Assembly: GCA_964385825.1 (NCBI GenBank)
Contig: CAYLPX010000002.1
Span: 98,876 to 162,875, forward strand
Origin: an uncultured Candidatus Saccharibacteria bacterium
GTDB taxonomy: Bacteria > Patescibacteriota > Minisyncoccia > Phycocordibacterales > JAKFXT01
DNA length: 64,000 bases
Direction: 5' to 3'
Shown here piece by piece: positions 20,401 through 58,803 of this stretch. Both the position numbers and the translations under genes were made by a program. Numbering within the stretch: the first letter of the stretch is position 1; the number at the start of each line of letters is the position of its first letter. Under the pieces are notes generated by a model, which saw only the letters and a list, made by a program, of their open reading frames with translations, was not told the DNA's origin and made no database searches.

Positions 20401-20455
20401 ATACGTTATCAGGTTTGGGAAGGGTCTCAAGCTAGCACATTTCAAGGAGATTATC

Positions 20456-20944
20456 ATGTACGCTCGCAACTTTGCAGTTCTGTTGGTTCTTGCTATCACC
20501 ACTCTCTTCGGGGGGTGCGGCGGACTCAACACCTTGGACCCGCAAGTCTACCGCTATGGCGGGGGTACGCAGTCAGATTTCATCGTGACGGCCCCGCCGT
20601 GCAAGCAGTTGCAGTTGGAGGGCAAGCCTTGGCAGGCTATCCAATGTCAGGGAGGGGTGAACTCGCAGGTGCGCGACAATGCGACGGCGGTCTTCTACGA
20701 AGAACGCCGTCAGGCCGACCAGATATACTGGGAAGCCTTCAACTCTGTCGCCATCGGCGAGAAGGGGTTCGGCGTTTCGCAGTATGACTGCCGGCAGTTC
20801 CGTAGCTCTCTCGTGAAGTACACCCGTTGCAATGACGGGCTTCGCGAGGGGGGGCAACAGGCGGTCCGCAATGCCTACTGGCAGAGTGAGCAGCAAATGC
20901 GAGCCGCGCGCGACGTAGGGAGGGCGTACACCAACAGTCGATAG
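20456..20944 (+). CDS. foreign high-GC lipoprotein (no family recognised)
   Basis: The signal peptide ends in the lipobox LFGGC. The mature part has 6 Cys, and the ORF is about 60% GC with GC3-rich codons, unlike its neighbours. The listed ORF 20372-20944 probably starts at the internal ATG at 20456. Confidence 0.55.
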   Translation: MYARNFAVLLVLAITTLFGGCGGLNTLDPQVYRYGGGTQSDFIVTAPPCKQLQLEGKPWQAIQCQGGVNSQVRDNATAVFYEERRQADQIYWEAFNSVAIGEKGFGVSQYDCRQFRSSLVKYTRCNDGLREGGQQAVRNAYWQSEQQMRAARDVGRAYTNSR

Positions 20945-20976
20945 GGGGGGGGCTGAACGGCACTCTCCTTAAGTTT

Positions 20977-21008
20977 TCAAGGCACCTTTCGGGGTGCCTT
21001 TTTTATTT
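20977..21008 (+). terminator. GC-rich rho-independent terminator
   Basis: AAGGCACC-TTTCGG-GGTGCCTT hairpin followed by TTTTATTTT. Confidence 0.6.
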
Positions 21009-21052
21009 TAGACCCCAATTTTTCATACTGCCTTGCGTGGTAGAATGGGAGA

Positions 21053-21481
21053 ATGAAACGACTTATTAAGAGCTTGGAGGAAATGGACCTGTTTGCAGAA
21101 GAGGTTTTGGCTGGACTCCCGCTAGAGAGGGGGGCTATGCTCATAACTCTAAAAGGGGATCTTGGGGCTGGAAAAACAGCTTTTACTAAAAGTGTTGCAA
21201 AGCATCTTGGGGTGACTGAAACAGTTACTAGCCCAACTTTCGTTATTATGAAATCGTACCTGCTCACGGGGAGGGCATATCGAAAACTTATTCATATAGA
21301 TGCATATCGTGTTGATGACCCTTCAGAGTTTAGACCGCTTCAGTTCACTGAGCTCATGAAAGATCCAAACAACCTCATTTTGCTTGAGTGGCCAGAGCGA
21401 GTTCCTAGTTTGATTCCTGAGAACACGAGGAAAATAAAATTTACATTTGTTGATGAAACAACTCGCGAAGTTGAATATTAG
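21053..21481 (+). CDS. tsaE: tRNA t6A37 biosynthesis ATPase TsaE
   Basis: P-loop GDLGAGKTAFTK and a 142 aa YjeE-like length. Confidence 0.75.
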   Translation: MKRLIKSLEEMDLFAEEVLAGLPLERGAMLITLKGDLGAGKTAFTKSVAKHLGVTETVTSPTFVIMKSYLLTGRAYRKLIHIDAYRVDDPSEFRPLQFTELMKDPNNLILLEWPERVPSLIPENTRKIKFTFVDETTREVEY

Positions 21482-21483
21482 GT

Positions 21484-23880
21484 ATGGCTACACGCACAAC
21501 AAAAAAAGGAAAAGTAAAACCAGTGCGTCTCGTGCTCCTTGATGCGCACGCGATTCTTCATCGCGCGTATCACGCACTTCCTGATTTTGCGACGACAAGT
21601 GGCGAGCCAACAGGGGCACTCTACGGACTCTCAACTATGTTGCTTAAAATTGTGAATGATCTTAAGCCAGACTATATTGTTGCATGCTATGACTTACCAG
21701 GACCAACCTTTCGTCATGAGGCATATGAAGCGTATAAGGGGACACGGAGTAAGACTGATGATGCGCTGGTTTCTCAACTTGAGAAGAGTCGCGACGTTTT
21801 CAAGGCTTTTAATATTCCGATGTATGAAGCTCCGGGGTTTGAGGCAGATGACATGCTGGGGACTATTGTGGAGCAGTTAAAGAAAACGTCCCTTCAGATA
21901 ATCATAGCTTCCGGGGATATGGATACGATGCAGCTCATTAATGATGATAAGGTTGTAGTATATACACTCAAAAAAGGAATCAACGATACTATTCTCTACG
22001 ATGAAAAGGCAGTGATAGAACGTTTTATGTTTCCTCCGAAATTGCTGCCTGACTATAAAGGATTGCGCGGCGACCCATCGGACAATATTGTTGGTATAAA
22101 AGGTATCGGCGAGAAAACAGCCACTGACTTAATAGTACAGTTCGGCAGTATAGAAAAAATGTATAAGCAGCTAAAGAAAGACCGTGGGGCCTTTCTTAAG
22201 GCTGGGATTAAAGAGCGTATGATAACCCTCCTTGAAGAAGGGGAGGATGAGGCGCTATTTTCTAAAACACTCGCAACCATTCGTCGCGATGCTCCTATTA
22301 CTTTTGTTCTGCCCGAGAAAAAGTGGCGTGAGGGCTTAGAGGTATCAAAAGTTATAGCTCTTTTCACAGAACTACAGTTCCGCGCACTTTCAGTGCGTAT
22401 TCGTGATCTTTTTGGTCAACCAACACTTTTGCCAGCTGAGGATGGGGAGCCCGCAGAGCAGTTTGAGGAAAGAGAATCAGTAGACCCTAAGGAGTTAGAA
22501 GAAACAGCTCTAGCGCTCTATGTGCTCGATTCTAATTATTTAGATCCAGGACTTGAAGATATATTGAACTTTGCAAAAACAGAAAGTTTCAGTGAAGCGA
22601 GAAATATCATTTTTGCTGGACTTAAGCAAAAAGGAGTTGAGAAGGTCTACGAAGAGATTGAGAAGCCACTTATTCCTGTGGTAAAGAAGATGGAAGCATG
22701 GGGGATTGGAGTTGATAAACCCTATTTCAAAAAATTGGGTACGGAGTATCACAAAGAACTCGCAAAACTAGAGAAGAAAATTTTTGAATTAGCAGGTATG
22801 GAGTTCAATGTGAACTCTCCAAAACAGTTAAGTGAAGTCCTTTTTGAAAAGTTACAGCTGTCGCTTAAGAATCATAAGAAAACAGCTGGGGGAGTGAAGT
22901 CTACAAGAGAATCAGAGCTTGAGAAAATGAAAGATCTTCACCCTATTATTGCTTTCATACTTTCCTATAGAGAACTTCAGAAACTACTCTCTACCTATAT
23001 AGATACTATTCCACACATGGTAGGAGAGGACGGGAGGCTTCATGCACGGTTTGTATTGGCCGGTGCTGCTACGGGGCGCATGTCTTCTCAAAACCCGAAC
23101 CTACAAAATATTCCCGTGAAGACAGAGCTTGGGCGGAATATTCGTCCAGGGTTTGTGGCAGAGAAGGGCTATAGTTTGGTGGCGTTTGATTATGCACAGA
23201 TTGAACTTAAAATTGCGGCCTTTTTGTCTCACGATAAGAAGCTGATTGAGATATTCAAAAGCGGGGAGGATATTCATACAGAAGTAGCTGCAGAAGTGTT
23301 CGGGGTCCCACAAGAGAAGGTGGATAAGGAAATGCGTCGCAAGGCTAAGGTGATTAACTTCGGCATACTCTATGGGATGGGGGTGAATGCGCTGCGGGAA
23401 AACTTAGGAACCGATAGGGCTGAAGCGCAGGAATTTTATAACAGATATTTTGAGAGCTTTAAGGGGTTGGCCGATTATCTCAACAAGGTGAAAGAAGATA
23501 CACACAAACTTGGGTATACCGAAACCTATTTTGGGCGAAGGCGCTATTTTGAAGGCATTCGCTCCTCACTTCCCTTTATCCGCGCTTCAGCGGAGCGTAT
23601 GGCGATTAATGCGCCTATCCAAGGGACAAGTGCTGATATAGTAAAGATAGCTATGGCACGGATAGACGCCTATGTGCGAGAAGAGGGGCTGGAAAAAGAA
23701 ATTCGCCCCCTTCTTCAGATCCACGATGAGCTTATGTACGAAATTAAAGACTCGCTTATTAAAACGGCTGCTTCCAAAATACAAGCGATTATGGAAAACA
23801 TTATTCCTCCCAAAGATATTTTCGGTATTACATTAACGACTAGTTTTGCGGAGGGAAAAGATTGGGGAGAGCTTTATTAG
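21484..23880 (+). CDS. polA: DNA polymerase I
   Basis: An N-terminal 5'-3' exonuclease domain is followed by polymerase motif A DYAQIELKIAAFLS, RMSSQNPNLQNIP, and motif C QIHDELMYE. Confidence 0.9.
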   Translation: MATRTTKKGKVKPVRLVLLDAHAILHRAYHALPDFATTSGEPTGALYGLSTMLLKIVNDLKPDYIVACYDLPGPTFRHEAYEAYKGTRSKTDDALVSQLEKSRDVFKAFNIPMYEAPGFEADDMLGTIVEQLKKTSLQIIIASGDMDTMQLINDDKVVVYTLKKGINDTILYDEKAVIERFMFPPKLLPDYKGLRGDPSDNIVGIKGIGEKTATDLIVQFGSIEKMYKQLKKDRGAFLKAGIKERMITLLEEGEDEALFSKTLATIRRDAPITFVLPEKKWREGLEVSKVIALFTELQFRALSVRIRDLFGQPTLLPAEDGEPAEQFEERESVDPKELEETALALYVLDSNYLDPGLEDILNFAKTESFSEARNIIFAGLKQKGVEKVYEEIEKPLIPVVKKMEAWGIGVDKPYFKKLGTEYHKELAKLEKKIFELAGMEFNVNSPKQLSEVLFEKLQLSLKNHKKTAGGVKSTRESELEKMKDLHPIIAFILSYRELQKLLSTYIDTIPHMVGEDGRLHARFVLAGAATGRMSSQNPNLQNIPVKTELGRNIRPGFVAEKGYSLVAFDYAQIELKIAAFLSHDKKLIEIFKSGEDIHTEVAAEVFGVPQEKVDKEMRRKAKVINFGILYGMGVNALRENLGTDRAEAQEFYNRYFESFKGLADYLNKVKEDTHKLGYTETYFGRRRYFEGIRSSLPFIRASAERMAINAPIQGTSADIVKIAMARIDAYVREEGLEKEIRPLLQIHDELMYEIKDSLIKTAASKIQAIMENIIPPKDIFGITLTTSFAEGKDWGELY

Positions 23881-23906
23881 TTTTAGGGAGTGATAAGATA
23901 AAGACC

Positions 23907-24596
23907 ATGCTATACGTTTATTACGGCAATAACAGAGTAAGGGCACTATTGCAGGCCGAGAAAGTGCTCGAGAAGTGTGGGGCAGAGGAGGTGGTACATT
24001 TAGATGATACAACAGCCACGCTTTCAGAAATCTTTGGACTTGCCGAGCAAGAGGGACTTTTTGGTGGGACCAAGGCTGTGCGCGGAGATCAACTTTTAGG
24101 GAGTGATGAGCTCGGAAAAGACCTGCTCAAACAATTAAACGTACTTTCAAGTTCAAAAACAGTTTTTGTTCTACTTGAAGATAAGATACTAGCTGAACCA
24201 CTCCGCGCTATCAAAAAAGTAACAACTGAAGTTGAGGAGTATAAGCTCGCTGAAACAAAAAGCGCCTTTAATACTTTTGCATTAGCTGATGCGCTACTCA
24301 TGCGCGATAAGAAGGCGCTTTGGGTACTCCTTATGCGGGCCTTTAAAGCAGAGAAAACGGCGGAAGAAATAATAGGGACGTTGTTCTGGCAAATGAAAAG
24401 TTTTCTTATTGTAGAGAATGGTGGTGGAACGTCACTCTCACCTTTTGTTGTAGGTAAGGTTAAGAGACAGTTAAAGAATTTTAAAACAGGAGAAATGAAG
24501 GAACTTACCAATAAACTACTCACTGCCTATCACGAAGCTCGGCGCGGAAGGGGAGACATGGAAACAGCACTTGAGCGGTTTGTACTCGGGGTGTAA
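23907..24596 (+). CDS. holA: probable DNA polymerase III delta subunit
   Basis: The start MLYVYYGNN, then LSEIFGLAEQEGLFGG, and a helical C-terminus fit the delta-subunit pattern. The listed ORF 23862 overlaps the polA stop, so the start was chosen at the internal Met. Confidence 0.4.
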   Translation: MLYVYYGNNRVRALLQAEKVLEKCGAEEVVHLDDTTATLSEIFGLAEQEGLFGGTKAVRGDQLLGSDELGKDLLKQLNVLSSSKTVFVLLEDKILAEPLRAIKKVTTEVEEYKLAETKSAFNTFALADALLMRDKKALWVLLMRAFKAEKTAEEIIGTLFWQMKSFLIVENGGGTSLSPFVVGKVKRQLKNFKTGEMKELTNKLLTAYHEARRGRGDMETALERFVLGV

Positions 24597-24621
24597 AAAG
24601 CCCCGCCGAAGCGGGGGGTGA
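24597..24621 (-). terminator. GC-rich terminator hairpin (T-run on the minus strand)
   Basis: AAAA, then GCCCCGC-CGAA-GCGGGGG. Confidence 0.45.
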
Positions 24622-24933
24622 CTAAGCACGAATGCCCAAAAGTGGACACAGCAGCTCACGCCACTGAGCAATTGATGCGTACACCCCATGTATTTCGAGG
24701 GCGTCTTGCGGATCAGGGGTTTCCCCGGCTGTGGGAAAGACACCGATCACAAACGCCTCGTCGCAGCACCCGCATTTGACTCGTATGCTGGGGGCCTTCT
24801 TACCTTGGCCTGTTCGGTGGGTGATACGCAGCGGGGTGGTGTTCGGCACACCCCCGTAAAGTTTGGTAACTTTTGGCACGGCAATCTCCTTCTGTTCATT
24901 AACGGATGATAAACGTGTTTCTGGGATGAACAT
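24622..24933 (-). CDS. foreign high-GC small Cys-rich protein
   Basis: The protein begins MFIPETR and contains KCGCCDEAF. The ORF is GC-rich with GC3-biased codons and has no clear SD. The listed ORF extends to a TTG at 24957. Confidence 0.3.
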   Translation of the reverse strand: MFIPETRLSSVNEQKEIAVPKVTKLYGGVPNTTPLRITHRTGQGKKAPSIRVKCGCCDEAFVIGVFPTAGETPDPQDALEIHGVYASIAQWRELLCPLLGIRA

Positions 24934-24995
24934 TACGCTCTGCAGCAAAGAAGTCAAATTAAAAACACGGCAAGATATGCTATTCTTGAGAAATA

Positions 24996-25472
24996 ATGGA
25001 TTTTAAGGGAAACAAAATCGTGGTGGGTATAAGTATAGGAATACTGGTATTCCTCGGGGTTTTGTATGGAGCGAGAGAGGGCGACATTATTACACGAGAC
25101 CATAAGACACAAACAAATACTATGAACAAAGAAAACTTGCAGTGGTTTACTCACAAAGGTTGTACTAGTCTTGAGATTGAAAAATATAAGTCTATCTCAG
25201 ACCCCCAAATAATAGCCTCTGCGACTATTACCGACATGGCCAAGATCAACAGTCTTATGGAACGAATCGAAAAGTTGCCTGTAGATGGGGATGTAATGAT
25301 TTCTTTCAGTGAGAATGCTGCGAACACAAATTTGATTTTCAAATGCGATAAGGGCGATCAAGTTATAGAGATATACGATGGAGGTTTTAAAACACCATCT
25401 ACCGGGTTCAATACTGATAGCGATGTTGAGGAAAAGGAATTAATCAATGAAATAGAGGGGTATTTGAAGTAG
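24996..25472 (+). CDS. hypothetical membrane-anchored protein
   Basis: One N-terminal TM helix and no recognisable motifs. Confidence 0.4.
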   Translation: MDFKGNKIVVGISIGILVFLGVLYGAREGDIITRDHKTQTNTMNKENLQWFTHKGCTSLEIEKYKSISDPQIIASATITDMAKINSLMERIEKLPVDGDVMISFSENAANTNLIFKCDKGDQVIEIYDGGFKTPSTGFNTDSDVEEKELINEIEGYLK

Positions 25473-25531
25473 AAAGGGAAAGTATAGCTTCTTTTCAGAA
25501 AGCACTTTATAGTGTAAGTTGTATTACATTT

Positions 25532-25603
25532 CCGCCCATAGCTCAGTGGTAGAGCAGTTGCCTTTTAAGCAATTGGTCGCAGGTTCGATCCCTGCTGGGC
25601 GGA
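25532..25603 (+). tRNA. tRNA-Lys (anticodon UUU)
   Basis: Manual fold: acceptor CCGCCCA/TGGGCGG, D-arm AGCTCAGTGGTAGAGC, anticodon loop CTTTTAA, T-arm GCAGGTTCGATCCCTGC. Confidence 0.85.
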
Positions 25604-25880
25604 CTTGAGAAAAAACAGTGCCTGCGCACTGTTTTTTGCTACAAGTCCGAGGCGGAGCGATGTTTTTACAGTAGTAAAAACCGCGAGTCGTGGTCAAGGG
25701 ATTTTACGAGCGACGGCGAGTAAAATATTCGTGACGACGTAGCCTGACTATCAGAAAAGTACCCGCGACGGTAGTCGAGATCCCTGCTGTAAAATTGTGA
25801 GCCGGGGTCGCGAGATTTTTCTGTCAGGAAAAATACTTGTGACGACAAAAAACAGTGCCTGCGCACTGTTTTTTAATGAC
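25604..25880 (+). repeat. tRNA-flanking structured repeat, copy A
   Basis: It is bounded by two identical A6-CAGTGCCTGCGCACTG-T6 hairpins (25610-25637 and 25847-25874). It contains GAGCGACGGCGAGTAAAATATTCGTGAC, AAAAGTACCCGCGACGGTAGTCGAGAT and ATTGTGAGCCGGGGTCGCGAG, all shared with copies B-D. Confidence 0.6.
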
Positions 25881-25897
25881 TGCTTAATACTTTTTAA

Positions 25898-26303
25898 CTA
25901 AAGTGGCAAATCAAAGGCGTAGAGTCCTGGTCCAATGAAGAGGAAGGAGAGGGAAATAAAAAGGAGGAGGGTGTAGAAAGAGCGAGGGTGTGGAGACAGA
26001 GGTTTCTTAAGGCAGGAAAGGCAAATCATAAGGAACGAAAGCCCGGCACCAAGAATGGCCCCGATTTGTGTATAAAGGCCGACTAGAAAAGAAAGGCCAA
26101 TAATAAATTGGAGAGTGGCAAGAAGAATGAGGGTAAAGAGTGGGTGAAGGAAAGAAAGGCTGCGGATGTTAGAGAGAACCTGGGTACGTTCCTTGGTAAG
26201 AGCTCGGTAGCCGAGAGCGAGAAAACTAACTCCAATAGTGACTCGTAAAACGCTAATACCAATAAGCCCGTAGGCAAGTAGAGTTGGGAAGACGCTTAAC
26301 ATA
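25898..26303 (-). CDS. DoxX-like small polytopic membrane protein
   Basis: Four hydrophobic helices. The start was chosen at MLSVFPT. Confidence 0.3.
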
Positions 26304-26338
26304 CGGCATATTCTAGCACAGAGTACTCCTGTGCTATA

Positions 26339-27348: not shown

Positions 27349-27363
27349 AAAAGCTTTGGCGAG

Positions 27364-28269: not shown

Positions 28270-28322
28270 GACACCATGATAGCAGAAATTACAAAATTAG
28301 ATTATTAGTAATTTAGGAAAGC

Positions 28323-29219: not shown

Positions 29220-29230
29220 AGTTGTAGGAG

Positions 29231-30499: not shown

Positions 30500-30542
30500 A
30501 GGTTACATATTAGCTAAAGCGGAAGAAAAAGCTACGGAATCG

Positions 30543-31115: not shown

Positions 31116-31195
31116 CCCCCCCAGTATATCGCATTTTAGAAATAGGGCTCCCTGTATTGCTTTTTATGGGGGTTTTAGGTAATATCGCTCTACCT

Positions 31196-31459: not shown

Positions 31460-31461
31460 AA

Positions 31462-31495
31462 CAAAAAACACCCGAGAGGGTGTTTTTTGTTTTAG
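31462..31495 (+). terminator. rho-independent terminator
   Basis: AAAAAACACCC-GAGA-GGGTGTTTTTT. Confidence 0.6.
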
Positions 31496-31631: not shown

Positions 31632-31916
31632 TTGGTGGGGCAGGGGTTAGTAGGAATCTCGACTACCGTCGCGGGTACTTTTCGACTTCATTCTTCGGCT
31701 GCCTTGAATTCAGTAACGAAAAGTCTTTCGATTCCTGCACGCAAGCAAAGCAGTTTGCTTGCTCTCGGAGCCCTTTCAGGTGTCACAGATAAATTACTCG
31801 CCGTCGCTCATAATTTTCCGCGACCCCGCCTCGCAAATTTGCTTGCTAGCAAATTATAGCTCCGGCCGGACTCGTAAGTAAAAAGAGGTGCGCAGGCACC
31901 TCTTTTTACTTACGAG
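31632..31916 (-). repeat. tRNA-flanking structured repeat, copy B (between two tRNA-Arg genes)
   Basis: A 21 bp-stem hairpin CTCGTAAGTAAAAAGAGGTGC-CTGC-GCACCTCTTTTTACTTACGAG (31871-31916) abuts the tRNA 3' end. It also contains TCCGGCCGGAGCTATAATTT, AAATTTGCGAGGCGGGGTCGCGGAAAATTA, GAGCGACGGCGAGTAATTTATCTGTGACAC and AAAAGTACCCGCGACGGTAGTCGAGATTCCT. Confidence 0.6.
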
Positions 31917-31988
31917 TCCCCTCGGCAGGAATCGAACCTGCATCGCAAGATCCGCAATCTTGCGTCCTATCCATTGAACGACGAGGGG
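31917..31988 (-). tRNA. tRNA-Arg (anticodon read as GCG; could be ACG-type)
   Basis: Manual fold: acceptor CCCCTCG/CGAGGGG, D-arm GTTCAATGGATAGGAC, anticodon arm CAAGA-TTGCGGA-TCTTG, T-arm GCAGGTTCGATTCCTGC. Confidence 0.7.
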
Positions 31989-36138: not shown

Positions 36139-36210
36139 CTCCCCGTAGTTCAATGGATAGAACAGGAGACTTCTAAGCTTCTGATCGTGGTTCGATTCCA
36201 CGCGGGGGGA
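36139..36210 (+). tRNA. tRNA-Arg (anticodon UCU)
   Basis: Manual fold: acceptor CTCCCCG/CGGGGGG, D-arm GTTCAATGGATAGAAC, anticodon loop CTTCTAA, T-arm CGTGGTTCGATTCCACG. Confidence 0.8.
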
Positions 36211-36363
36211 GAGAGCAGAGCGAACGAGACCCGCGTGGAATCGAACGCGAAAGGGGTCGGGAAAACTGTAGTTTTCCCGTGGAGGAAGGCAAGGAGCGAA
36301 GCGAGTGTCGGAAAACCGTGGGTTTCCGAGGAGTGAGATAGCGAAGCGTCCACGCGGGGGGAC
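36211..36363 (+). repeat. att-like scar at the tRNA-Arg 3' end
   Basis: The tRNA 3' end CACGCGGGGGGA (36200-36211) recurs as a direct repeat at 36351-36362. An inverted copy of the T-arm/acceptor, CCCGCGTGGAATCGAAC, sits at 36229-36245. Hairpins GGGAAAACTGTAGTTTTCCC and CGGAAAACCGTGGGTTTCCG lie in between. Confidence 0.55.
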
Positions 36364-36590
36364 TTTATAGCAAAAAACAGTGCACAAGCACTGTTTTTTG
36401 CTATAAAGTCCGGCCGGAGCTATATTTTCTCAGTCGAGAAAATTGCGAGGCGGGGTCGCGGAAATTTTGTTTTGACGAAAACAAAATTATCTGTGACACA
36501 GAAACTGGCCGGCCGGAACGAGTGGCGACGAGCTTTTATCCGTGACAGAGCGTGATGAAAATATTAAACGCCCCCGAAGGGGCGTCAGTT
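36364..36590 (+). repeat. tRNA-flanking structured repeat, copy C
   Basis: A 22 bp-stem hairpin CTTTATAGCAAAAAACAGTGC-ACAA-GCACTGTTTTTTGCTATAAAG (36363-36408) is followed by TCCGGCCGGAGCTATATTTT, AAAATTGCGAGGCGGGGTCGCGGAAATTTT and ATTATCTGTGACACAG. Confidence 0.6.
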
Positions 36591-36797
36591 GAAGTATACC
36601 CACCAAAGTAGGCACCACGCGAGGCTAAGTGGAACGATTGCGATACCACTTGCCCAGCAAAAGAACACAAGACCCGTCCCCCAAAGGGAACCAATGACCC
36701 CCGCTATGAGTCCGAAGAAAATTGCGAGAACCAGGATGCCGAGGAGTGGTCCCCAGAACTCCCCCCTCTCCTTAAAATAACGCATTACTCTTGCCAT
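36585..36797 (-). CDS. foreign high-GC 70 aa two-TM micro-protein
   Basis: MARVMRYFKERGEFWGPLLGILVLAIFFGLIAGVIGSLWGTGLVFFCWASGIAIVPLSLAWCLLWWVYFN. A GGGGATGGGG RBS lies upstream, and a GC-rich terminator ACGCCCC-CGAA-GGGGCGT overlaps the stop. Confidence 0.35.
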   Translation of the reverse strand: MARVMRYFKERGEFWGPLLGILVLAIFFGLIAGVIGSLWGTGLVFFCWASGIAIVPLSLAWCLLWWVYFN

Positions 36798-36837
36798 AAC
36801 CCCATCCCCCAATTGGTTTAAGAAAGCTGACAGTGTG

Positions 36838-37158
36838 TCACTGCTCGATGGTGCGGAAGCGTGGCATACCCCTCTTGATAAAGAAGGTTTGGAACTCCCC
36901 CCTTTTGTCCACTCTTCGCCAGCCGTAGTGCGTTTCCTCGAGAATTCCTGCAGCAACCATTGCCCGGAGTCGCTTGAGGAGAGAGGGATTCCGTGCGGTT
37001 GAAACCCCGATTTCATTTGGCAAAACCCACGACCTCCTCTCACCTTTTTTTGGCCAGTCGTGTGGCCGCCAGGGTGGGCGCAGATCACCGGCTTTGTTGA
37101 TGGCTTCCACGATTTTCTTCGTGGGGGAACGGGCAGTAACGGGAGGGTTTATCCTCAT
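36838..37158 (-). CDS. foreign high-GC basic 106 aa protein (possible DNA-binding)
   Basis: An AGGAG RBS lies 6 nt before the ATG. The protein is Arg/Lys/Trp-rich (WRPHDWPKKGERRSW...LKRLRAMVAAGIL) and sits in a GC-rich island. Confidence 0.4.
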   Translation of the reverse strand: MRINPPVTARSPTKKIVEAINKAGDLRPPWRPHDWPKKGERRSWVLPNEIGVSTARNPSLLKRLRAMVAAGILEETHYGWRRVDKRGEFQTFFIKRGMPRFRTIEQ

Positions 37159-37205
37159 GATCTACTCCTCTATTTACTAGACTGTGAATCAGGATACACT
37201 CGATT

Positions 37206-47495: not shown

Positions 47496-47559
47496 CAGCC
47501 TTGCTTTTAGGTGGCTAAAGCGTAGGATGTGGGAGTATTTGTTCATAAAGGAGAGTGCA

Positions 47560-47859
47560 ATGATTAGCATGTATAGGGTTGTTTTCCTCGACGATGACGG
47601 CGTCGAGAAGATCTTCTATACAACGGACGAGGTGTTGGCGGGGGAGCTGGCTCTCATCTCAGAGAGCACTCAGGTCGTTCAAGGCAGCGTTCGTCCTGAA
47701 CGGGTTTGGGAGCGTCGGGAAGATGTCCCCTTTGAAATACTCGACGTGGTCAAGAGGAGGGTGGTTCGCAAGGCGGCACTGGAATTTGGCCAGCTGCTGA
47801 AGACACTGCCCTCGGAGGAGCGCAGGGCAATTTTGTCAGAGCTCGGCAAGGTCTGCTGA
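47560..47859 (+). CDS. foreign high-GC small protein (99 aa, no family recognised)
   Basis: An AGGAG RBS lies 7 nt before the ATG at 47560. The ORF is GC3-rich, begins MISMYRVVFLDDDGVEKIFYTTDE, and is followed by a GC-rich terminator. Confidence 0.4.
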   Translation: MISMYRVVFLDDDGVEKIFYTTDEVLAGELALISESTQVVQGSVRPERVWERREDVPFEILDVVKRRVVRKAALEFGQLLKTLPSEERRAILSELGKVC

Positions 47860-47900
47860 CAGCCAAGCGACAACATATCTTTCTAGCCGACCTGCTCGGC

Positions 47901-47932
47901 AACCCGCGACGGCAGTCGCGGGTTTTAATTTT
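47901..47932 (+). terminator. GC-rich rho-independent terminator
   Basis: AACCCGCGAC-GGCA-GTCGCGGGTT followed by TTAATTTTA. Confidence 0.55.
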
Positions 47933-47959
47933 ATATAGTTTAGTTGCTATACTTTCAGC

Positions 47960-48686: not shown

Positions 48687-48690
48687 ACTT

Positions 48691-52214: not shown

Positions 52215-52269
52215 AGAAATAGAGTCACTCTAAGGGCGTTATTAGACTAATTTCTGATCATTTCTGCTT

Positions 52270-52740: not shown

Positions 52741-52745
52741 TATCT

Positions 52746-53273: not shown

Positions 53274-53674
53274 TGAAAAGACTAAGCCTAATATTCTTTG
53301 TTTCGTTTGTGCTCAATCTATTGTGGGAGCATGCTCACGCTGGACTCTATAGTAGTTATAAAGGTGGTTCTATAACTAACTTTATTCTTTTTCATGCAAG
53401 TCTTGGTGACGCAGTACTAATTACAGCTCTTGCAGGACTTTATTTATATACTTCTTTTTTTAAAAAACATATTTGGTTTATGGCTCTTCTGGCGCTTCTG
53501 CTCGCTACTCTCATTGAATGGTATGGTCTTTGGAGTGGTCGCTGGGTTTATAGAGACGTTATGCCCATTGTGCCCCTGCTTCAAGTTGGACTCACTCCGT
53601 TTTTGCAACTCATGATTACTGGGTATGTAACTAAGTGGCTGGTAGGGAAGATGGAAAGTTATAAACAGGCCTAA
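53273..53674 (+). CDS. hypothetical polytopic membrane protein
   Basis: Four TM helices. Confidence 0.35.
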   Translation: MKRLSLIFFVSFVLNLLWEHAHAGLYSSYKGGSITNFILFHASLGDAVLITALAGLYLYTSFFKKHIWFMALLALLLATLIEWYGLWSGRWVYRDVMPIVPLLQVGLTPFLQLMITGYVTKWLVGKMESYKQA

Positions 53675-53754
53675 CTGCATCTTTTTTTAGGAAGCGTACA
53701 ATTATAGGTATAGAGACATGGGTCTCCGGTCGAAAGCACAATAATTTTTTATTT

Positions 53755-53970
53755 ATGAAAGGATTACACATGGTCGCCTTCATTCTCCTAGTAGTAGGAG
53801 GACTCAACTGGCTTCTTGTTGCATTTAACTACAACCTAGTTGATATGCTCCTTGGAGCTGGAAGTACTTTGGCGAAAGTGGTCTATATTCTTGTGGGACT
53901 CTCGGCAATCTACGAAGTTGCTACTCATAAGAGTAGCTGCAAGATGTGTGGAGGAAGTTCAATGGCGTAA
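53755..53970 (+). CDS. DUF378-like small membrane protein
   Basis: GGLNWLLVAFNYNLV pattern and two TM helices. Confidence 0.45.
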   Translation: MKGLHMVAFILLVVGGLNWLLVAFNYNLVDMLLGAGSTLAKVVYILVGLSAIYEVATHKSSCKMCGGSSMA

Positions 53971-54064
53971 GCCTTGGCATGTATCCACAAAACACAAAAC
54001 CCGCCTTGGCGGGTTTTGTGTTTTGTGGACTGGTAAAGTAGATAGGATTATCTATAATTATCAT

Positions 54065-54295
54065 ATGAAACCCAAAACTTCTCATGGCAAGCTAGGATTC
54101 ACTCTTATAGAGCTACTATTTTGGTTAGCCCTTATTGGCTTTATTATTGTGGGCTATATTTTGAAGAACTATAAAGAATGGCAGCATCAAACTAACCAAG
54201 AGAGTCCAGAGCAACTCGCTAAATCAAAAAACTTACTAGATCGAACACAGGGTGATCAAAAGCTTAAGAATGATTTGATAAATAGCACACCGTAG
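54065..54295 (+). CDS. type IV pilin-like protein (prepilin N-terminal methylation motif)
   Basis: The prepilin leader and cleavage-site motif is MKPKTSHGKLGFTLIELLFWLALIGFIIVG. The listed ORF 53840-54295 starts too far upstream. Confidence 0.55.
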   Translation: MKPKTSHGKLGFTLIELLFWLALIGFIIVGYILKNYKEWQHQTNQESPEQLAKSKNLLDRTQGDQKLKNDLINSTP

Positions 54296-54297
54296 AG

Positions 54298-55434
54298 CTA
54301 TTCGTAGATGGCACTGCTCACCGCCTCCACAACCCCTTCGTCAAATGGGCCAGGAATTATTTTTTCTGTACTAGGATTTTTAACAACGGATGCTAGGGCT
54401 TCGGCCGCGCGGATTTTCATATCATCAGTTATCTTACTAACACGATGCTCGAGAGCCCCCTTAAATACGCCAGGGAAGACTAGTGAATTGTTTATTTGAT
54501 TAGGGAAGTCAGAGCGACCAGTAGCTATTATGAGTGCCCCACCTTTTTGTGCCTCAAGAGGCATAATTTCTGGGGTCGGGTTTGCCATGGCGAAAATAAT
54601 AGCGCCCTCCTTCATGTGTTTTACATCCTCAACTTTTAGTACTCCAGCTTTTGAAACCCCGATAAAAATATCAGCATCTACAAGGGCCTCATGAAGTACC
54701 CCAGTTTTATTTTCTCTGTTTGTGCTGTGCATAAGTTGCTTCTTCTCTGGCGTTAGATCACTACGATGGTTACCCACAATACCTTTGCTGTCGCAGAGAA
54801 TAATATCAGTAATACCGTAATGTATGAGTAATTTAGTAATAGCGATTCCTGCAGCTCCCGCTCCATTCACTACGACCCTTACCGATTCCTTCTTTTTATT
54901 AGTAACAGAAAGCGCGTTAATAAGTCCTGCTAGCACAACAATAGCCGTGCCATGCTGATCATCATGCATAACAGGTATATCAAGCTCTGCTTTTAGTCGC
55001 TCCTCTATTTCAAAGCAACGCGGTGCTGCAATGTCTTCTAAGTTAATACCACCAAAGGTCGGTGCTATTGCTTTTATGGTGGCAATGATTGCTTCGGTGT
55101 CTTGTGTGGCAAGTACTATAGGAAAGGCGGAGATATCTGCAAAGCGTTTGAAAAGAGCGCACTTGCCCTCCATAACAGGGAGGGCGGCTAGTGGACCGAT
55201 GTTACCGAGTCCGAGAACTGCAGAACCGTCACTGATCACAGCCACCATGCTTTTAGTCGCAGTGAGTGCGAACGCTTCTTTAGGATCATCTTTAATAGCA
55301 AGACAAGGTCCCGCTACCCCTGGAGTGTAGGCAAGAGAGAGATCCTCTCTATTTTGGATAGCTACCTTACTCACAACTTCAATTTTTCCTGTGCTTACTC
55401 TATGTAGCTCAATACTTTTTGTTTGGTAGTCCAT
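54298..55434 (-). CDS. NAD(P)-dependent malic enzyme
   Basis: LSLAYTPGVA, the Rossmann motif VVNGAGAAGIA and a 378 aa length. Confidence 0.8.
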   Translation of the reverse strand: MDYQTKSIELHRVSTGKIEVVSKVAIQNREDLSLAYTPGVAGPCLAIKDDPKEAFALTATKSMVAVISDGSAVLGLGNIGPLAALPVMEGKCALFKRFADISAFPIVLATQDTEAIIATIKAIAPTFGGINLEDIAAPRCFEIEERLKAELDIPVMHDDQHGTAIVVLAGLINALSVTNKKKESVRVVVNGAGAAGIAITKLLIHYGITDIILCDSKGIVGNHRSDLTPEKKQLMHSTNRENKTGVLHEALVDADIFIGVSKAGVLKVEDVKHMKEGAIIFAMANPTPEIMPLEAQKGGALIIATGRSDFPNQINNSLVFPGVFKGALEHRVSKITDDMKIRAAEALASVVKNPSTEKIIPGPFDEGVVEAVSSAIYE

Positions 55435-55574
55435 GTGAATAGTGTTACGCGATTACATTTTTTAAGAAAAGAAATAAAGAGAGGGAAGTTAATAATAGCA
55501 CCATGAACAGAACGGAAAAAGTAATATGCTATAATAGACCAATCGGTAGATTACTGGTCTAATATATTTAACGT

Positions 55575-56393
55575 ATGAATGAATTTTTAAATTCACCACA
55601 TATTACGAGGTTGCTGAAACTTGGGTATTATGTGCTTGCGATTGTCTTTATTTTCACCATTGCTAAAACGGTGAATGAGTTTAAGAGAGGTATGTACATT
55701 GGGCGTGATGTGGCGGCACAGAGCACTATTATGGTAACTGGAGAGGGTGAGGTGCTTGCTAAGCCTGATGTAGCCACCTTTTCTTTCACGGTGACTGAAA
55801 GTGCTAAGGTAGTGGCTGACGCACAGAAGTTAGCTGAAAGTAAGGTAAGTGCGGCGCTTGTTGGTGTAAAGAAGGGTGGAGTTGACGAGAAAGATATCAA
55901 AACCCTTTCTTACAATATTAATCCCAAGTACGAGTATTATTACGGAGTACAACCAATGATTGCGTGCTCAAGTAACTATTGTCCGCAGCCAGCCATCAAA
56001 CAGCCTAAAATTATTGGTTACGAAGTGAGCGAAACTATTGAGGTGAAGGTTCGCAATATTGCTGATGCTGGGACCCTCCTCTCTAGTATTGGTGGGGCAG
56101 AGGTTTCAAATGTAAGTGGGCTCACATTCTCAATAGATAAAGAGGATGCTGTTAAGGCTGAGGCGCGTGATAAGGCTATCAAACAAGCTAAAGAAAAAGC
56201 AGAAGTTCTAGCAAAAAGTTTGGGGGTTTCTTTGGTGCGCGTAGTGTCATTCTCTGAAAATGGTAATTACCCAATGTACTATGCTAAGTCTGCGGTTATG
56301 GATTCAGCTGCTATGGGGGCACCAGCCGTGTCAGTGCCAACTGGTGAGAATCAAATTATGTCTAATGTAACGGTAACGTACGAAATCAGGTAG
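55575..56393 (+). CDS. SIMPL-domain (DUF541/BP26-like) protein
   Basis: A TM anchor is followed by ITVTGEGEVLAKPDVATFSFTV and an SIMPL-like repeat architecture. Confidence 0.55.
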   Translation: MNEFLNSPHITRLLKLGYYVLAIVFIFTIAKTVNEFKRGMYIGRDVAAQSTIMVTGEGEVLAKPDVATFSFTVTESAKVVADAQKLAESKVSAALVGVKKGGVDEKDIKTLSYNINPKYEYYYGVQPMIACSSNYCPQPAIKQPKIIGYEVSETIEVKVRNIADAGTLLSSIGGAEVSNVSGLTFSIDKEDAVKAEARDKAIKQAKEKAEVLAKSLGVSLVRVVSFSENGNYPMYYAKSAVMDSAAMGAPAVSVPTGENQIMSNVTVTYEIR

Positions 56394-56502
56394 TAAGGTA
56401 GAGCAGTAAAAGTAAAGACCCCTACTCGTAAGTAGGGGTCTTTACTTTTACTGCTCCTATGGTTATATAAAAAAAGTGTGTAACCAACGGAGGAGGTGAA
56501 TC

Positions 56503-56760
56503 ATGGCACTCAGGACTCCCTTTGGGAGATCTTCAAAAGTTTTTCATGAAGACGGCGAGGCGAAAGAAGAGGTTCCTCGTTTTAGCCGTCCCAAAGCGGC
56601 GCCAAAAAGGGTGTTGACCCCTGAGGAGCTCGCTTTTCGCGCGGCGTATGCACGGTGCGGGGCCGATGGGAATCGGCAGGGGCTCATCAATGCCGGCATC
56701 ATCACTCCGCCCTCGTCGATGGCGAACCCCACTTTTCGCTTCCGCAGATCCTTTCATTAG
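56503..56760 (+). CDS. foreign high-GC small basic protein (85 aa)
   Basis: A GGAGGAGG RBS lies upstream, the ORF is GC3-rich, and a GC-rich terminator follows. Confidence 0.35.
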   Translation: MALRTPFGRSSKVFHEDGEAKEEVPRFSRPKAAPKRVLTPEELAFRAAYARCGADGNRQGLINAGIITPPSSMANPTFRFRRSFH

Positions 56761-56783
56761 CGGGGGTCGTAACGTTCCCGCTG

Positions 56784-56808
56784 GCCCGCCTTCGGCGGGC
56801 TTTTTGTT
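56784..56808 (+). terminator. GC-rich rho-independent terminator
   Basis: GCCCGCC-TTCG-GCGGGC followed by TTTTTGTTT. Confidence 0.6.
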
Positions 56809-56897
56809 TACGAAAGGAGCTTGACTTTTGAGTATTTCCCATGATAGTATTACCCGTATCAGCAAGCCCCGAGAGGGGTTTTTAAATTACAAAAATT

Positions 56898-57077
56898 ATG
56901 GCATTTACAGAATACGTAGCAGAGACACGTGAAGAAATGAAGCATGTGAGTTGGCCTACACGTAACCAACTTATTGGCTACACATTGGTGGTTATTATTA
57001 TCTCAATCCTTACTGGCCTTTATCTTGGTGTTTTTGACTATTTGCTTCACCTTTTGATTCAAATTCTGCTCAAATAA
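56898..57077 (+). CDS. secE: preprotein translocase subunit SecE
   Basis: Manual translation gives MAFTEYVAETREEMKHVSWPTRNQLIGYTLVVIIISILTGLYLGVFDYLLHLLIQILLK (59 aa). It lies directly upstream of nusG, and it is under the ORF-track length cut-off. Confidence 0.7.
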   Translation: MAFTEYVAETREEMKHVSWPTRNQLIGYTLVVIIISILTGLYLGVFDYLLHLLIQILLK

Positions 57078-57100
57078 TTTTTTAAATTTACTATTTACTT

Positions 57101-57646
57101 ATGTCTAAACAACACACAACTGGAGAGCGGAACTGGTATGCCATCCACACCTATGCTGGATATGAGAATGCCGTTGTTCGCAATCTTAAGCAGCGTATAG
57201 AGTCCCTCGGTATGGAGGATAAGATTTTCCAGGTTATTGTTCCTGTAGAAAAGAAGATAAAAATAAAAGGGGGTAAGCGCGTTGAAGAAGAGGAGAAAAT
57301 TTATCCTGGATACGTGCTTGTAGAAATGATCGTAACTGATGATACCTGGTTTATGGTGCGTAATACGCCTCGGGTGACTGGGTTCGTTGGTTCCGGTGTG
57401 CAGCCAGTGCCCCTCAACCAAAAGGAGATTGACGAACTTTTCTCTCGCATGAGTACTGACTCAGTAAAGCATGCTATTAATCTCGAAGTGGACGATATTG
57501 TGTCGATTGTGGATGGTCCGTTTAAGGATCTTGAAGGCAAGGTGTCAGAAGTTGATAATGAGCGCGGTAAGATCAAAGTGCTTGTTTCTATGTTTGGACG
57601 TGAGACTCCGGTAGAACTCGACTTCTTGCAGGTGAAGAAAATATAA
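57101..57646 (+). CDS. nusG: transcription termination/antitermination factor NusG
   Basis: The NGN domain contains [14 protein letters not shown]. The KOW motif is in the C-terminus. Confidence 0.9.
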
Positions 57647-57669
57647 GCTAAGCTCTACTAACTACATAT

Positions 57670-58092
57670 ATGGCAAAGAAAATCACAAAGAAACTAAAGC
57701 TTCAGATCCCCGCCGGGAAGGCTAACCCTGCGCCTCCAGTAGGTCCTGCCTTGGGTCAGGCAGGTATTGCAATTGGTGACTTCGTTACCAAGTTTAACGA
57801 TGCTACTAAGGATCGTATGGGAGAAATTGTACCTGTACAGATTTCAGTATACGAGGATCGCACCTATGATTTCGTACTTAAAACCCCTCCAGCTCCAAGC
57901 CTTCTTCTTAAGGCTATTGGTAAGGACAAGGCTTCTCAAAAGCCAGGAGTAAGTAAGGCAGGTTCTATTTCACAAAATGATCTTCGTGCTATCGCGGAAA
58001 AGAAAATGGTAGACCTCAACGCACACACTGTTGAGCAGGCTATGAAAATCATCGCTGGTACCGCGCGCTCAATGGGGATTGAGGTGAAATAA
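57670..58092 (+). CDS. rplK: 50S ribosomal protein L11
   Basis: [20 protein letters not shown] is a near-invariant L11 motif. Confidence 0.9.
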
Positions 58093-58107
58093 GTTTAATT
58101 TTTAAGA

Positions 58108-58152
58108 AACACCCGCCGTTTCGCGAAGCGAAACGGCGGGTGTTTACTTTTA
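58108..58152 (+). terminator. rho-independent terminator with a long stem
   Basis: AAACACCCGCCGTTTCGC-GAA-GCGAAACGGCGGGTGTTT followed by ACTTTTATA. Confidence 0.6.
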
Positions 58153-58192
58153 TACCCTCTACTGTATAAATAGGGGGGTTCTTAACTGTGAG

Positions 58193-58768
58193 GTGTTTGA
58201 AATGAACATGTTGCCGGTCGTGAAAGTTGGGTCGTTGGAGGAGCTTGGGGAAGCTCTCCATGTGGCAAACATTTCTACGGGCAGTTGGGGGGTGGGTAAG
58301 GCGAAAACCATTGGCCACCTTTTCGATGAGTTGCGGGCAGGGGAGGCGAGGCTGGTGCGTACTTCAGAGGGCAAGCTTCGTCGGGAGACTGAAGTTGTCT
58401 GCCTTGAGATTGCAAAGGAGGGGCGGGTGCTTAAGGAGATCTACCAGCTCTTCTATGAAAGTGGGCGTACTCGGACAAGAACTCTCGACACTACAACTGG
58501 CGAGAAAATGCGCCCAGGCGAAACCCCGCTTGAGGCCCTGCGCCGCCTGGTTAGGGAGGAGTTCCCGGTGTTGCAATGCCAAACACCTGATTCCTTCGAA
58601 CCCCTTGAGGTGCGGACTCGCGAGGCGGAAAGCGAGAGCTATCCGGAACTCACGACGCGGTACGTGCTCCACTTCTTCACTGTGGAGCTACAGCTTCCGC
58701 TCCCGGACTTTGTCGTTCAGGAGGCCGACAAGATGTCGGCCTATGCTTGGGTAAACAGGCCCAAGTAG
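58193..58768 (+). CDS. foreign high-GC Nudix-fold-like protein
   Basis: GEKMRPGETPLEALRRLVREEFPV aligns with the Nudix box, with the first Glu of REx2EE replaced by Leu. The ORF is about 57% GC and GC3-rich, and is framed by its own terminators. Confidence 0.45.
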   Translation: MFEMNMLPVVKVGSLEELGEALHVANISTGSWGVGKAKTIGHLFDELRAGEARLVRTSEGKLRRETEVVCLEIAKEGRVLKEIYQLFYESGRTRTRTLDTTTGEKMRPGETPLEALRRLVREEFPVLQCQTPDSFEPLEVRTREAESESYPELTTRYVLHFFTVELQLPLPDFVVQEADKMSAYAWVNRPK

Positions 58769-58773
58769 TTTTC

Positions 58774-58803
58774 AAAAGGCGCCTTCGGGCGCCTGTTTTT
58801 ATA
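58774..58803. terminator. bidirectional GC-rich terminator
   Basis: AAAA, then GGCGCC-TTCG-GGCGCC, then TGTTTTT. Confidence 0.6.

Follow-up and report, generated by a model that had tools for sequence, protein, structure and literature searches.

How do short GC-rich genes with their own expression signals come to lie between the housekeeping genes of a GC-poor bacterial chromosome? The question is raised by a 64-kb stretch of DNA from an uncultured bacterium filed under Candidatus Saccharibacteria (contig CAYLPX010000002.1, positions 98,876 to 162,875; here called the window), in which six small segments, c1 to c6 (20440-21008, 24597-24960, 36565-37165, 47545-47932, 56480-56812, and 58160-58803), deviate sharply in composition from the genes around them. 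The genomes of Patescibacteria are very small and streamlined, and these bacteria rely on other cells. What genes they acquire, and by what route, is a key to how they adapt. The reading that we favor, with a probability of about 0.5, is that the segments are moron-like cassettes, namely, integrase-less single-gene imports of different ages. The kind is known, as morons are independent transcription units spread by horizontal gene transfer (PMC3594210), and what is new here is that moron-like islets, GC-rich and without an integrase, lie at recurrent slots in the chromosome of a bacterium of the candidate phyla radiation (CPR).

The window contains dnaA and dnaN (named by position and sequence), ruvABC, pilB, tsaE, polA, holA, eight tRNAs, secE-nusG-rplK, and similar housekeeping genes. 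The closest matches of PolA among the GTDB species genomes are Patescibacteria metagenome-assembled genomes labelled Paceibacteria, Nomurabacteria, or Parcubacteria, and the label "Saccharibacteria" is common among the third-party annotation assemblies of PolA relatives. Judged by its gene sequences, the host is a CPR bacterium of the Paceibacteria type. Related loci and contigs that were compared carry L numbers. The nearest, L007, is a sister species locus whose PolA is 86% identical to that of the window, followed by L008 and L009 at 69%, and it is collinear with the window over 11.3 to 32.5 kb at ~75% nucleotide identity.

Composition and integrity of the segments

The window has a GC content of 42.9% over 64 kb, and its 300-nt windows have a mean of 42.9% with a standard deviation of 4.9, with peaks of 56 to 62% inside the segments. 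In a whole-window scan, c1 to c6 were the sole regions at least 0.12 above the median GC. An earlier reading of this DNA, made from the sequence only, had put all six at 57 to 60% GC, which is right for c1 (58.3%) and c5 (58.0%) but slightly high for c2 (54.4%), c3 (54.1%), c4 (54.9%), and c6 (55.3%). The central claim of that sequence-only reading, six GC-rich segments in a low-GC genome, was borne out by GC, by GC at third codon positions (GC3), and by tetranucleotide frequencies. Compared with 61 host genes, the open reading frames (ORFs) of the cassettes have GC z scores of 3.2 to 5.8 and a GC3 of 0.56 to 0.75 (z = 3.9 to 8.1), higher than in any of these host genes, whose GC3 is 0.38 ± 0.045 and at most 0.48. 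Higher values are likewise seen for GC2 and Arg/(Arg+Lys), all three codon positions deviate, and the tetranucleotide distances of the cassettes lie 2.7 to 6.4 standard deviations beyond those of same-size background windows. The pooled codon usage of c1, c4, and c6 correlates with that of Paceibacteria of 55 to 60% GC (r = 0.62 to 0.64) and not with that of the host (r = -0.15); that of c2, c3, and c5 is intermediate, and the codon-position GC periodicity of these three is weak.

The GC-rich tract in each case comprises the coding sequence (CDS) and the terminator, and 30-codon GC3 profiles show no rise in the adjoining ends of the flanking genes. No tracts recombined from GC-rich donors are thus seen to extend into the flanking genes, and the sharp intergenic boundaries disfavor long homologous tracts from such donors. 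Across ~90 related loci, GC-rich outliers are frequent in low-GC genomes, where 46 of 1226 genes deviate by +0.10 or more and 26 by -0.10 or less, the latter being mostly one conserved 85-amino-acid (aa) gene; in GC-rich relatives, low-GC outliers make up 7 of 120 genes. Such outliers in both directions (7/120 and 46/1226) are the pattern expected of exchange inside a compositionally heterogeneous clade. Few gene families had members in two or more of the sampled low-GC genomes, and these members are mostly GC-enriched too.

That the segments are chimeras or contaminant reads, or else GC-rich structured RNA genes, is hardly credible. Misjoins at GC-rich segments can occur, as indicated by contig L183, at whose start (1-197) an unrelated GC-rich, membrane-transporter-like fragment is fused in frame inside c1; this is probably a chimeric misassembly at the end of the contig, which calls for caution only and leaves the cassette junctions unaffected. 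An RNA reading could also draw on the missing strong codon-position periodicity in c2, c3, and c5. Against both, exact-protein look-ups found c1 and c2 in 6 Joint Genome Institute (JGI) assemblies, the c3 proteins c3b and c3a on 9 contigs, c5 on 2 Logan contigs, and c4 and c6 on 8 contigs, and both junctions of every cassette are 100% identical in independent contigs from different samples and pipelines. These identical junctions in up to 9 independent contigs rule out the assembly chimeras for which the sequence-only reading had asked a check, and c1 is syntenic in another species. Searched at the gathering threshold and again at E ≤ 1, Rfam returned only tRNAs and no cassette match, and the fold stability of c5 (z = -0.9) and c2 (z = -1.2) does not exceed that of shuffled sequence; the structured-RNA reading was rejected on these grounds. 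Conservation at the protein level is present for c1, c2, c3b, and c6, and these four are coding.

Expression signals

The proteins that the sequence-only reading had listed, i.e., a lipoprotein, a Cys-rich protein, a two-transmembrane-helix protein with a basic partner, 99-aa and 85-aa ORFans, and a Nudix-like protein, were all found, and their positions and signals are collected in Table 1. Each cassette ORF is preceded by an AGGAG/GGAGG-like Shine-Dalgarno (SD) motif, as that reading had held, and it was equally right that one cassette has a consensus TTGACT/TATAAT promoter, which belongs to c1. The TTGACTTTTA...TATAAT arrangement is kept upstream of the gene between pilB and tsaE in the sister species (L007) and in L009, L011, and L084, the four genomes checked for it. 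The best promoter match of c3 is 9/12; c2, c4, c5, and c6 have weak -35/-10 candidates read by hand, and scan matches are no commoner than in shuffled sequence.

The 3' hairpin of each cassette is among the strongest terminator-like hairpins of its region and is GC-rich in 6 of 6 cases. Perfect-stem terminators with a UUCG loop occur in the 64 kb only at c2, c3, and c6, and a dedicated scan of the 64 kb found none outside the cassettes; c1 and c5 have near-variant loops, and c4 has GGCA. The GC-rich stems with TTCG-type or GGCA loops described earlier therefore stand, but the GAAG loop counted among them belongs to the terminator of the host gene rplK. Of the 18 pairs in that terminator, 11 are G-C, so that the contrast drawn with AT-rich host terminators does not hold as a general rule.

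Table 1. Positions of the cassette genes and their expression signals in the window
Feature	Position	Strand	Description	Support or remark
c1 promoter-like site	20372..20400	+	TTGACT-17-TATAAT	11/12 match, best within 19-38 kb
c1 CDS	20456..20944	+	162-aa lipoprotein, LFGGC lipobox, GC 60%, GC3 0.75	Orthologue in L007
c1 terminator	20979..21000	+	AAGGCACCT-TTCG-GGGTGCCTT hairpin + T-run	Also kept in L007
c2 terminator	24601..24616	-	CCCCGC-TTCG-GCGGGG + T-run	Terminator scan
c2 CDS	24622..24879	-	Probably 85 aa, GTG start at 24879 after AAGGAG SD, VKCGCCDE motif	85-aa member in its 90% cluster
c3 terminator	36567..36586	-	GACGCCCC-TTCG-GGGGCGTT + T-rich tail	Terminator scan
c3a CDS	36585..36797	-	70 aa, two transmembrane helices, same orientation as c3b, 40 nt downstream of it	70 aa in all assemblies
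c3b CDS	36838..37158	-	106-aa basic winged-helix protein	
c4 CDS	47560..47859	+	99-aa acidic ORFan, GC1/2/3 0.63/0.36/0.68	Gene callers: ATG at 47527, 110 aa
c4 terminator	47901..47924	+	AACCCGCGAC-GGCA-GTCGCGGGTT + T-run	Terminator scan
c5 CDS	56503..56760	+	85-aa basic ORFan after GGAGGAGGTGA SD	Called as gene in two Logan assemblies
c5 terminator	56783..56801	+	GGCCCGCC-TTC-GGCGGGCT + T-run	Terminator scan
c6 CDS	58205..58768	+	187 aa, C-terminal divergent Nudix domain	Pfam NUDIX
c6 terminator	58777..58794	+	AGGCGCC-TTCG-GGCGCCT + T-run	Terminator scan

The c1 lipoprotein gene and the recurrent slots

c1 encodes a putative surface lipoprotein whose lipobox, read by eye from the sequence as MYARNFAVLLVLAITTLFGG-C, is kept in L007 and in the slot genes of other genomes. 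The L007 copy lies in the same slot between pilB and tsaE (pilB|tsaE) behind the same promoter and untranslated region and before the same terminator, with 72% amino acid identity, a GC of 60%, and a GC3 of 0.70. The ratio of nonsynonymous to synonymous substitution rates (dN/dS) between the two is ~0.16, and c1 is under purifying selection. Its nucleotide identity to L007 (~0.73) equals that of its flanks, which rules out a later exchange of c1 between the two genomes. At 4-fold degenerate sites the identity is 0.47, against 0.30 by chance and within the host-gene range of 0.29 to 0.51, and the GC of these sites (GC4) is 0.71 in the window and 0.69 in L007, compared with ~0.4 in host genes. 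Since c1 occupies the same slot and is as diverged as its flanks in L007, it predates the species split, and it shows no drift toward the host composition. Polarizing its substitutions with the P0007 protein gave 3 GC-to-AT and 4 AT-to-GC replacements in a hand count over very few sites. A recent import, as had been proposed, does not agree with a gene that shares its slot with the sister species, is largely randomized at synonymous sites, and is still 60% GC in both genomes; a composition-matched copy in a sister genome is the very type of result that the proposal itself had counted against recent acquisition. Homologs of c1 are ~70% identical and confined to its own narrow lineage, and Pfam, PHROGs, PADLOC, and NCBIfam returned no family for it. 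A homopolymeric G-run (20943-20952) directly after the c1 stop codon and outside the reading frame is 2 nt longer in L004, which comes from another sample.

The pilB|tsaE slot and the slot between SIMPL and secE (SIMPL|secE), where c5 lies, both recur, with other, mostly unrelated GC-rich ORFans in relatives. Among more distant genomes, 12 have nothing in the pilB|tsaE slot, and ~10 others have small lipoprotein genes there; these form several mutually unrecognizable families, and several have an LxGGC lipobox. In GC they exceed their genomes by anything from nothing (L013, GC3 of 0.29) to +0.20, with the L083 gene also ordinary at GC3 (0.27). In the SIMPL|secE slot, GC-rich ORFans are present in L089 (485 aa, 58% GC), L090 (155 aa, 56%), and L091 (>216 aa, 58%), whose genomes have a GC content of 38 to 43%. 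The ORFans of L089 and L091 are homologous, with 35 to 36% identity, and the slot ORFans are otherwise mostly unrelated. The GC-rich slot genes of relatives (n = 10) have no match in Pfam or PHROGs.

c2, c3, and the tRNA genes

c2 may be a small phage-type protein with a Cys motif. Its only relative is a 91-aa ORF on an IMG/VR viral contig (L093; 35% identity, E = 6e-9 by local blastp). There it belongs to a putative phage replication module and follows a DnaB-like helicase gene at a distance of a few genes. c2 and this ORF have the motif VKCGCCDE...EI(N/H)GV in common. The viral relative has a GC content of 34%. In L007, the slot between holA and tRNA-Lys holds two normal-GC genes in place of c2, and the tRNA-Lys segment is inverted (25530-25738 in the window versus 14463-14671 in L007); on the evidence of these sequences, rearrangement has a local hot spot here. 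In blastn, the L007 tRNA-Lys segment further matches sites near the tRNA-Arg genes of the window (36372-36497 and 31812-31941), which may be related tRNA-flanking sequence.

The two genes of c3 are predicted to encode a DNA binder, c3b, which has the winged-helix fold, and a small membrane partner, c3a. The c3b family is small, and its sole member with a source name comes from a Paceibacterota genome; the window protein and its nearest relatives are the richest of the family in Gly, Ala, Arg, and Pro (GARP) and in Arg. A tblastn search of INPHARED found no match for c2 or c3b, and viral contigs yielded no relatives of c3b, c4, or c5, a 14-residue c5 match being judged spurious.

c2 lies 572 nt from tRNA-Lys and c3 355 nt from tRNA-Arg, and the other four cassettes have no tRNA gene within 4 kb, so that only these two are within 1 kb of a tRNA gene, not several as had been noted. 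The last 14 nt of tRNA-Arg(TCT), TCCACGCGGGGGGA, are repeated exactly 152 nt downstream (36190-36362), with 0.07 matches expected by chance, and the stretch between the two TCCACGCGGGGGGA copies contains the T-arm/acceptor end once more, as a 17-nt inverted copy. This repeat looks like the att-like footprint of an old integration, with c3 outside it and starting 200 nt further on. Separately, hairpins of the form AAAAAACAGTGC-N-GCACTGTTTTTT, which resemble bidirectional terminators, flank tRNA-Lys and tRNA-Arg (25607-25637, 25844-25874, and 36369-36399).

These surroundings suggest that c2 and c3 could be leftover cargo of decayed tRNA-integrated elements or prophages. The duplicated tRNA-Arg 3' end, the inversion of the tRNA-Lys segment relative to L007 with different content in the adjoining slot, and the phage relative of c2 speak for this origin, and the proximity of both cassettes to tRNA genes (<600 nt) recalls tRNA-targeting islands and prophage remnants. 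Unlike in such islands, however, no integrase or other phage gene is evident here, the repeat spans only 152 nt and does not bracket c3, and four of the six cassettes are unrelated to tRNAs. We consider a tRNA-element origin of c2 and c3 quite unlikely.

c4, c5, and c6

c4 has no family match in Pfam, PHROGs, PADLOC, or NCBIfam, and a single-sequence AlphaFold2 model reached a predicted local distance difference test (pLDDT) score of 47, too poor for use. It follows a glycosyltransferase (named from its sequence) and a hydrolase; after the same pair in 8 to 10 relatives (L096-L107), c4 is absent and another gene follows directly. The coding status of c5 is the weakest of the set, its GC1/2/3 being flat. 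c5 and c6 are absent at their slots in relatives whose NusG is 87 to 91% identical, where thyA/thyX or DHFR follows rplK in place of c6. The variable presence that the sequence-only reading had suggested checking is thus found: c2 is replaced in the sister slot, and c4, c5, and c6 are missing at the slots of the sampled relatives.

c6 would be a divergent Nudix hydrolase beside a nucleotide-metabolism cluster. Residues 97 to 184 match PF00293 (NUDIX) with E = 1.5e-5 and 25.4 bits against a cut-off of 21.1, the sole match of any cassette protein across Pfam, PHROGs, PADLOC, and NCBIfam; there is no PHROG match among them. Its Nudix box, GEKMRPGETPLEALRRLVREEF, reads G-EKMRPG-E-TPLEALR-R-L-V-R-E-E-F-P-V against the canonical G-x5-E-x7-R-E-U-x-E-E-x-G-U, with the Glu after the Arg and the final Gly replaced and RLVREE in place of REUxEE, and these changes are the same in all five family members. 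A PDB sequence search gave only marginal matches to NUDT18. The genes after rplK are variable and include those for Nudix, HAD, dCMP deaminase-like, dCTP deaminase, ThyA/ThyX, DHFR, and deoxyribosyltransferase-like proteins, and rplA does not follow rplK in the window (58092-63684) or in L087, L088, L089-L091, L094, and L095.

Homologs of c6 are few, and those with >40% identity were found in only two relatives, L087 and L088, which have the same rplK-c6-HAD-807aa synteny in loci of 55% and 60% GC; the search returned none between 59% and 100% identity. The window protein is 57 to 59% identical to these copies, and its flanks are 57 to 62% identical to theirs; between L087 and L088, the flanks are 74% identical and c6 is 60% identical. 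The three copies are therefore equidistant although the flanks group L087 with L088, which places the c6 of the window nearer to the GC-rich clade than would be expected from vertical descent and mildly favors its transfer from that clade, as far as these sequences tell. Since the c6 homologs in the GC-rich relatives match the GC of their own genomes, GC-richness is not intrinsic to the c6 family.

The donor implied earlier was a high-GC bacterium from a classical phylum, such as an actinobacterium or proteobacterium serving as host to the episymbiont. Such a donor would fit the GC-rich composition and the C(UUCG)G terminators, both of them typical features of GC-rich bacteria. However, a GC3 of 0.56 to 0.75 corresponds to genomes of 55 to 60% GC and not to those of >65%, and the promoter of c1 matches the type used in the clade itself. 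The c6 relatives seen in context and the named c3b relative are Patescibacteria, and c1 is unmatched in a collection of 5.8 billion proteins that is rich in such phyla. The gene pool appears to be restricted to the CPR, with relatives of c6, c3b, and c2 in Paceibacteria or on a viral contig, and import from a classical high-GC phylum is very unlikely. Most individual gene transfers detected in groundwater Patescibacteria were intra-phylum (PMC12455944), which agrees with exchange inside the CPR gene pool.

Mobility signatures

The flanks of the cassettes are pilB, tsaE, polA, holA, tRNAs, SIMPL, secE-nusG-rplK, and HAD genes, and a location within a phage or prophage was not found. No k-mer of at least 9 nt is shared by at least three cassettes at their boundaries beyond one trivial word, the only direct-repeat family in the whole window is the tRNA-flanking hairpin, and no integrase-like ORF is evident in the ORF map of the window, which was made without a family-library scan. 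The earlier statement that the segments were inserted without an integrase thus agrees with the map, and the boundary k-mers and repeats are equally devoid of a mobile-element signature. The compact single-ORF units, their hairpin-forming 3' ends, and their diverse, unrelated cargo bring integron gene cassettes to mind. Unlike these, the units of the window are dispersed and have no intI, attI, or attC-like imperfect palindrome, and their hairpins are intrinsic terminators with perfect GC stems and T-runs that contain no common motif.

Origin of the cassettes

The closest likeness is to phage morons (PMC3594210), which are single small genes with their own signals and terminator, placed between conserved genes without a mobility gene. 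Their composition unlike the surroundings and their patchy presence among relatives are also features of the cassettes. Unlike morons, the cassettes lie in a cellular chromosome (pilB/tsaE, holA/tRNA-Lys, and secE-nusG-rplK), a phage relative was found only for c2, and a consensus promoter was detected for c1 alone. The description of each segment as a complete imported transcription unit thus stands as regards its self-contained build, with a consensus promoter at c1, and its composition foreign to the host, but not as regards a uniformly recent import.

Under the import reading, six independent horizontal acquisitions would have brought five single genes and one two-gene operon into the window. 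Each unit would be self-sufficient by virtue of its SD and strong C(UUCG)G-type intrinsic terminator, with a consensus promoter in c1 only, and would have been placed in an intergenic slot between conserved housekeeping genes. The source pool would most likely be GC-richer Patescibacteria and their phages. c1 would be older than the sister split and kept by purifying selection, and c2 and probably c4, c5, and c6 would be younger or lineage-specific. Insertion would probably have followed DNA uptake, by illegitimate or short-homology recombination in intergenic DNA, as the most economical guess.

In the Lawrence-Ochman amelioration model, horizontally acquired islets start compositionally atypical, and bacterial genes of foreign origin, like ORFans, usually have a lower GC than the host. 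The cassettes resemble such islets in their atypical GC at all codon positions, their codon and amino acid usage, their patchy presence, and their ORFan or accessory content. They differ in being ~12 to 17 points GC-richer than the host, and c1 shows no sign of amelioration despite near-randomized synonymous sites.

Several observations weigh against import. No homolog of c1 was found outside its own lineage among 5.8 billion proteins, so that a donor sequence is lacking; c4 and c5 have no relatives in family libraries, viral contigs, or the fetched loci, a search narrower than that for c1; and there are no insertion scars, repeats, or integrase at the cassettes. The oldest cassette, c1, has the highest GC3, and it keeps a GC4 of ~0.7 where neutral amelioration from any realistic donor should have cut it: with a retention per lineage of ~0.5 and neutral decay to ~0.4, an ancestral GC4 near 1.0 would be required. 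The homologous ORFans of L089 and L091 present the same difficulty, as their 4-fold identity of 0.35 is close to the 0.32 expected of randomized sites, and yet their GC4 is 0.81 and 0.70, whereas GC4 is 0.2 to 0.5 in their hosts and 0.21 and 0.57 in the NusG genes beside them. Extremely GC-rich donors, repeated re-seeding, or a gene-specific maintaining force are possibilities for both c1 and this pair. The lipoproteins of the pilB|tsaE slot, which stand behind one promoter type in the four genomes checked, also look more like a single fast-evolving resident gene.

These points lead to the alternative that the cassettes, or at any rate c1 together with the slot genes found in relatives, are resident, fast-evolving, lineage-specific genes whose GC-richness is held by a gene-specific force, candidates for which are selection acting on mRNA stability or on translation in small, strongly expressed genes and GC-biased repair or conversion under diversifying selection. 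Residence would account for the persistence of GC-rich c1 in two species at near-saturated synonymous divergence with a dN/dS of ~0.16, for the L089/L091 family (L089_485/L091_216), and for the pilB|tsaE lipoproteins of ~11 genomes, which are mostly GC-enriched by 0.06 to 0.20 and, in the four genomes checked, share the TTGACTTTTA/TATAAT promoter type. It would also be in line with a GC-rich tract that ends with the CDS and terminator without leaking into the flanks, with the GC enrichment of most members of the few families that recur among the sampled low-GC genomes, and with the confinement of c1 to its lineage. On the other hand, no mechanism is known that would raise the GC3 of individual bacterial genes by 0.3, and rplK, nusG, and secE are highly expressed host genes and yet are not GC-rich. 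Some slot lipoproteins (those of L013 and L083) are ordinary, the sister slot lacks c2 and the sampled relatives lack c4, c5, and c6, the c6 homologs track genome GC and the phage relative of c2 is GC-poor, and the low-GC outliers of GC-rich genomes fit exchange and not a GC-raising force. We regard residence as possible but doubtful. The wider proposal of a class of small, fast-evolving Paceibacteria genes at a GC-rich equilibrium (GC3 of 0.6 to 0.8 versus 0.2 to 0.45 in the host), persisting at recurrent slots past speciation and saturated synonymous divergence, is rather improbable.

Borrelia vls, GC-rich loci for variable surface lipoproteins in AT-rich genomes, offer a precedent for part of this picture, since c1 and its slot counterparts would likewise be small, fast-diverging surface lipoproteins that are GC-rich in low-GC genomes. 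In contrast to vls, the window contains no silent cassettes or paralogous c1 fragments and no marked GC skew, and the other five cassettes are not lipoproteins.

If the cassettes are imports, as we favor, the window suggests that part of the accessory content of Patescibacteria arrives as single, equipped expression units at a few recurrent intergenic slots without recognizable mobile-element machinery. The direction of the deviation is unusual, as the cassettes are GC-richer than the host and foreign bacterial genes are normally AT-richer. Should GC-richness be a donor signature only, the cassettes would conveniently mark the passage of genes between CPR bacteria of high and low GC. Should it be actively maintained, for which c1 and the L089/L091 pair give a hint, this would point to a compositional force that acts on single genes and has not been described in bacteria. 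A true GC-rich equilibrium would imply mRNA or codon selection on a special expression class, single-gene GC-biased conversion, or re-seeding from a hidden GC-rich reservoir, and ordinary import with amelioration would be insufficient. The lipoprotein beside the pilus ATPase, the phage-type Cys-motif protein, the winged-helix and membrane pair, and the divergent Nudix protein are candidate host- or phage-interaction factors.

Other features of the window and its relatives

Relatives have GC-rich islands at a fixed distance upstream of polA, which are ~2 kb long in L031 (5801-7825), L049 (6026-7975), and L053 (5826-7875) and shorter (~0.5 kb) at the same placement in L032, L033, and L039 (~5.8 to 6.4 kb). 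Their ORFs look spurious, with a GC3 of up to 0.96, and they may be RNA genes or introns. Low-GC ORFs of 84 to 86 aa lie ~9 to 10 kb upstream of polA in ~20 related loci, and their likeness to an 84-aa ORF of the window is positional. In the window, this ORF follows dnaA and dnaN, and the three (8795-11671) have a GC content of 32 to 34%, ~9 points under that of the window. The cumulative GC skew turns at ~7 to 8 kb, where the origin probably lies.

The 3' end of ruvB is a strain-variable region with a recombination boundary. All 34 mismatches between the strain contig L004 and the window fall within 160 nt there (17040-17196), and the sequence further upstream differs; in L001 (1-3091), the upstream content is also different and RuvB is truncated. 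The region from 39.4 to 41 kb is mildly GC-rich but contains ordinary genes, including an RluA-like gene and an apparent ribosomal protein L19 gene named from its sequence, together with tRNA-Leu. A GCG anticodon for tRNA-Arg is rare in bacteria, in which ACG is usual, and the window has such a tRNA-Arg(GCG) at 31916-31988, adjoining tRNA-Arg(CCG).

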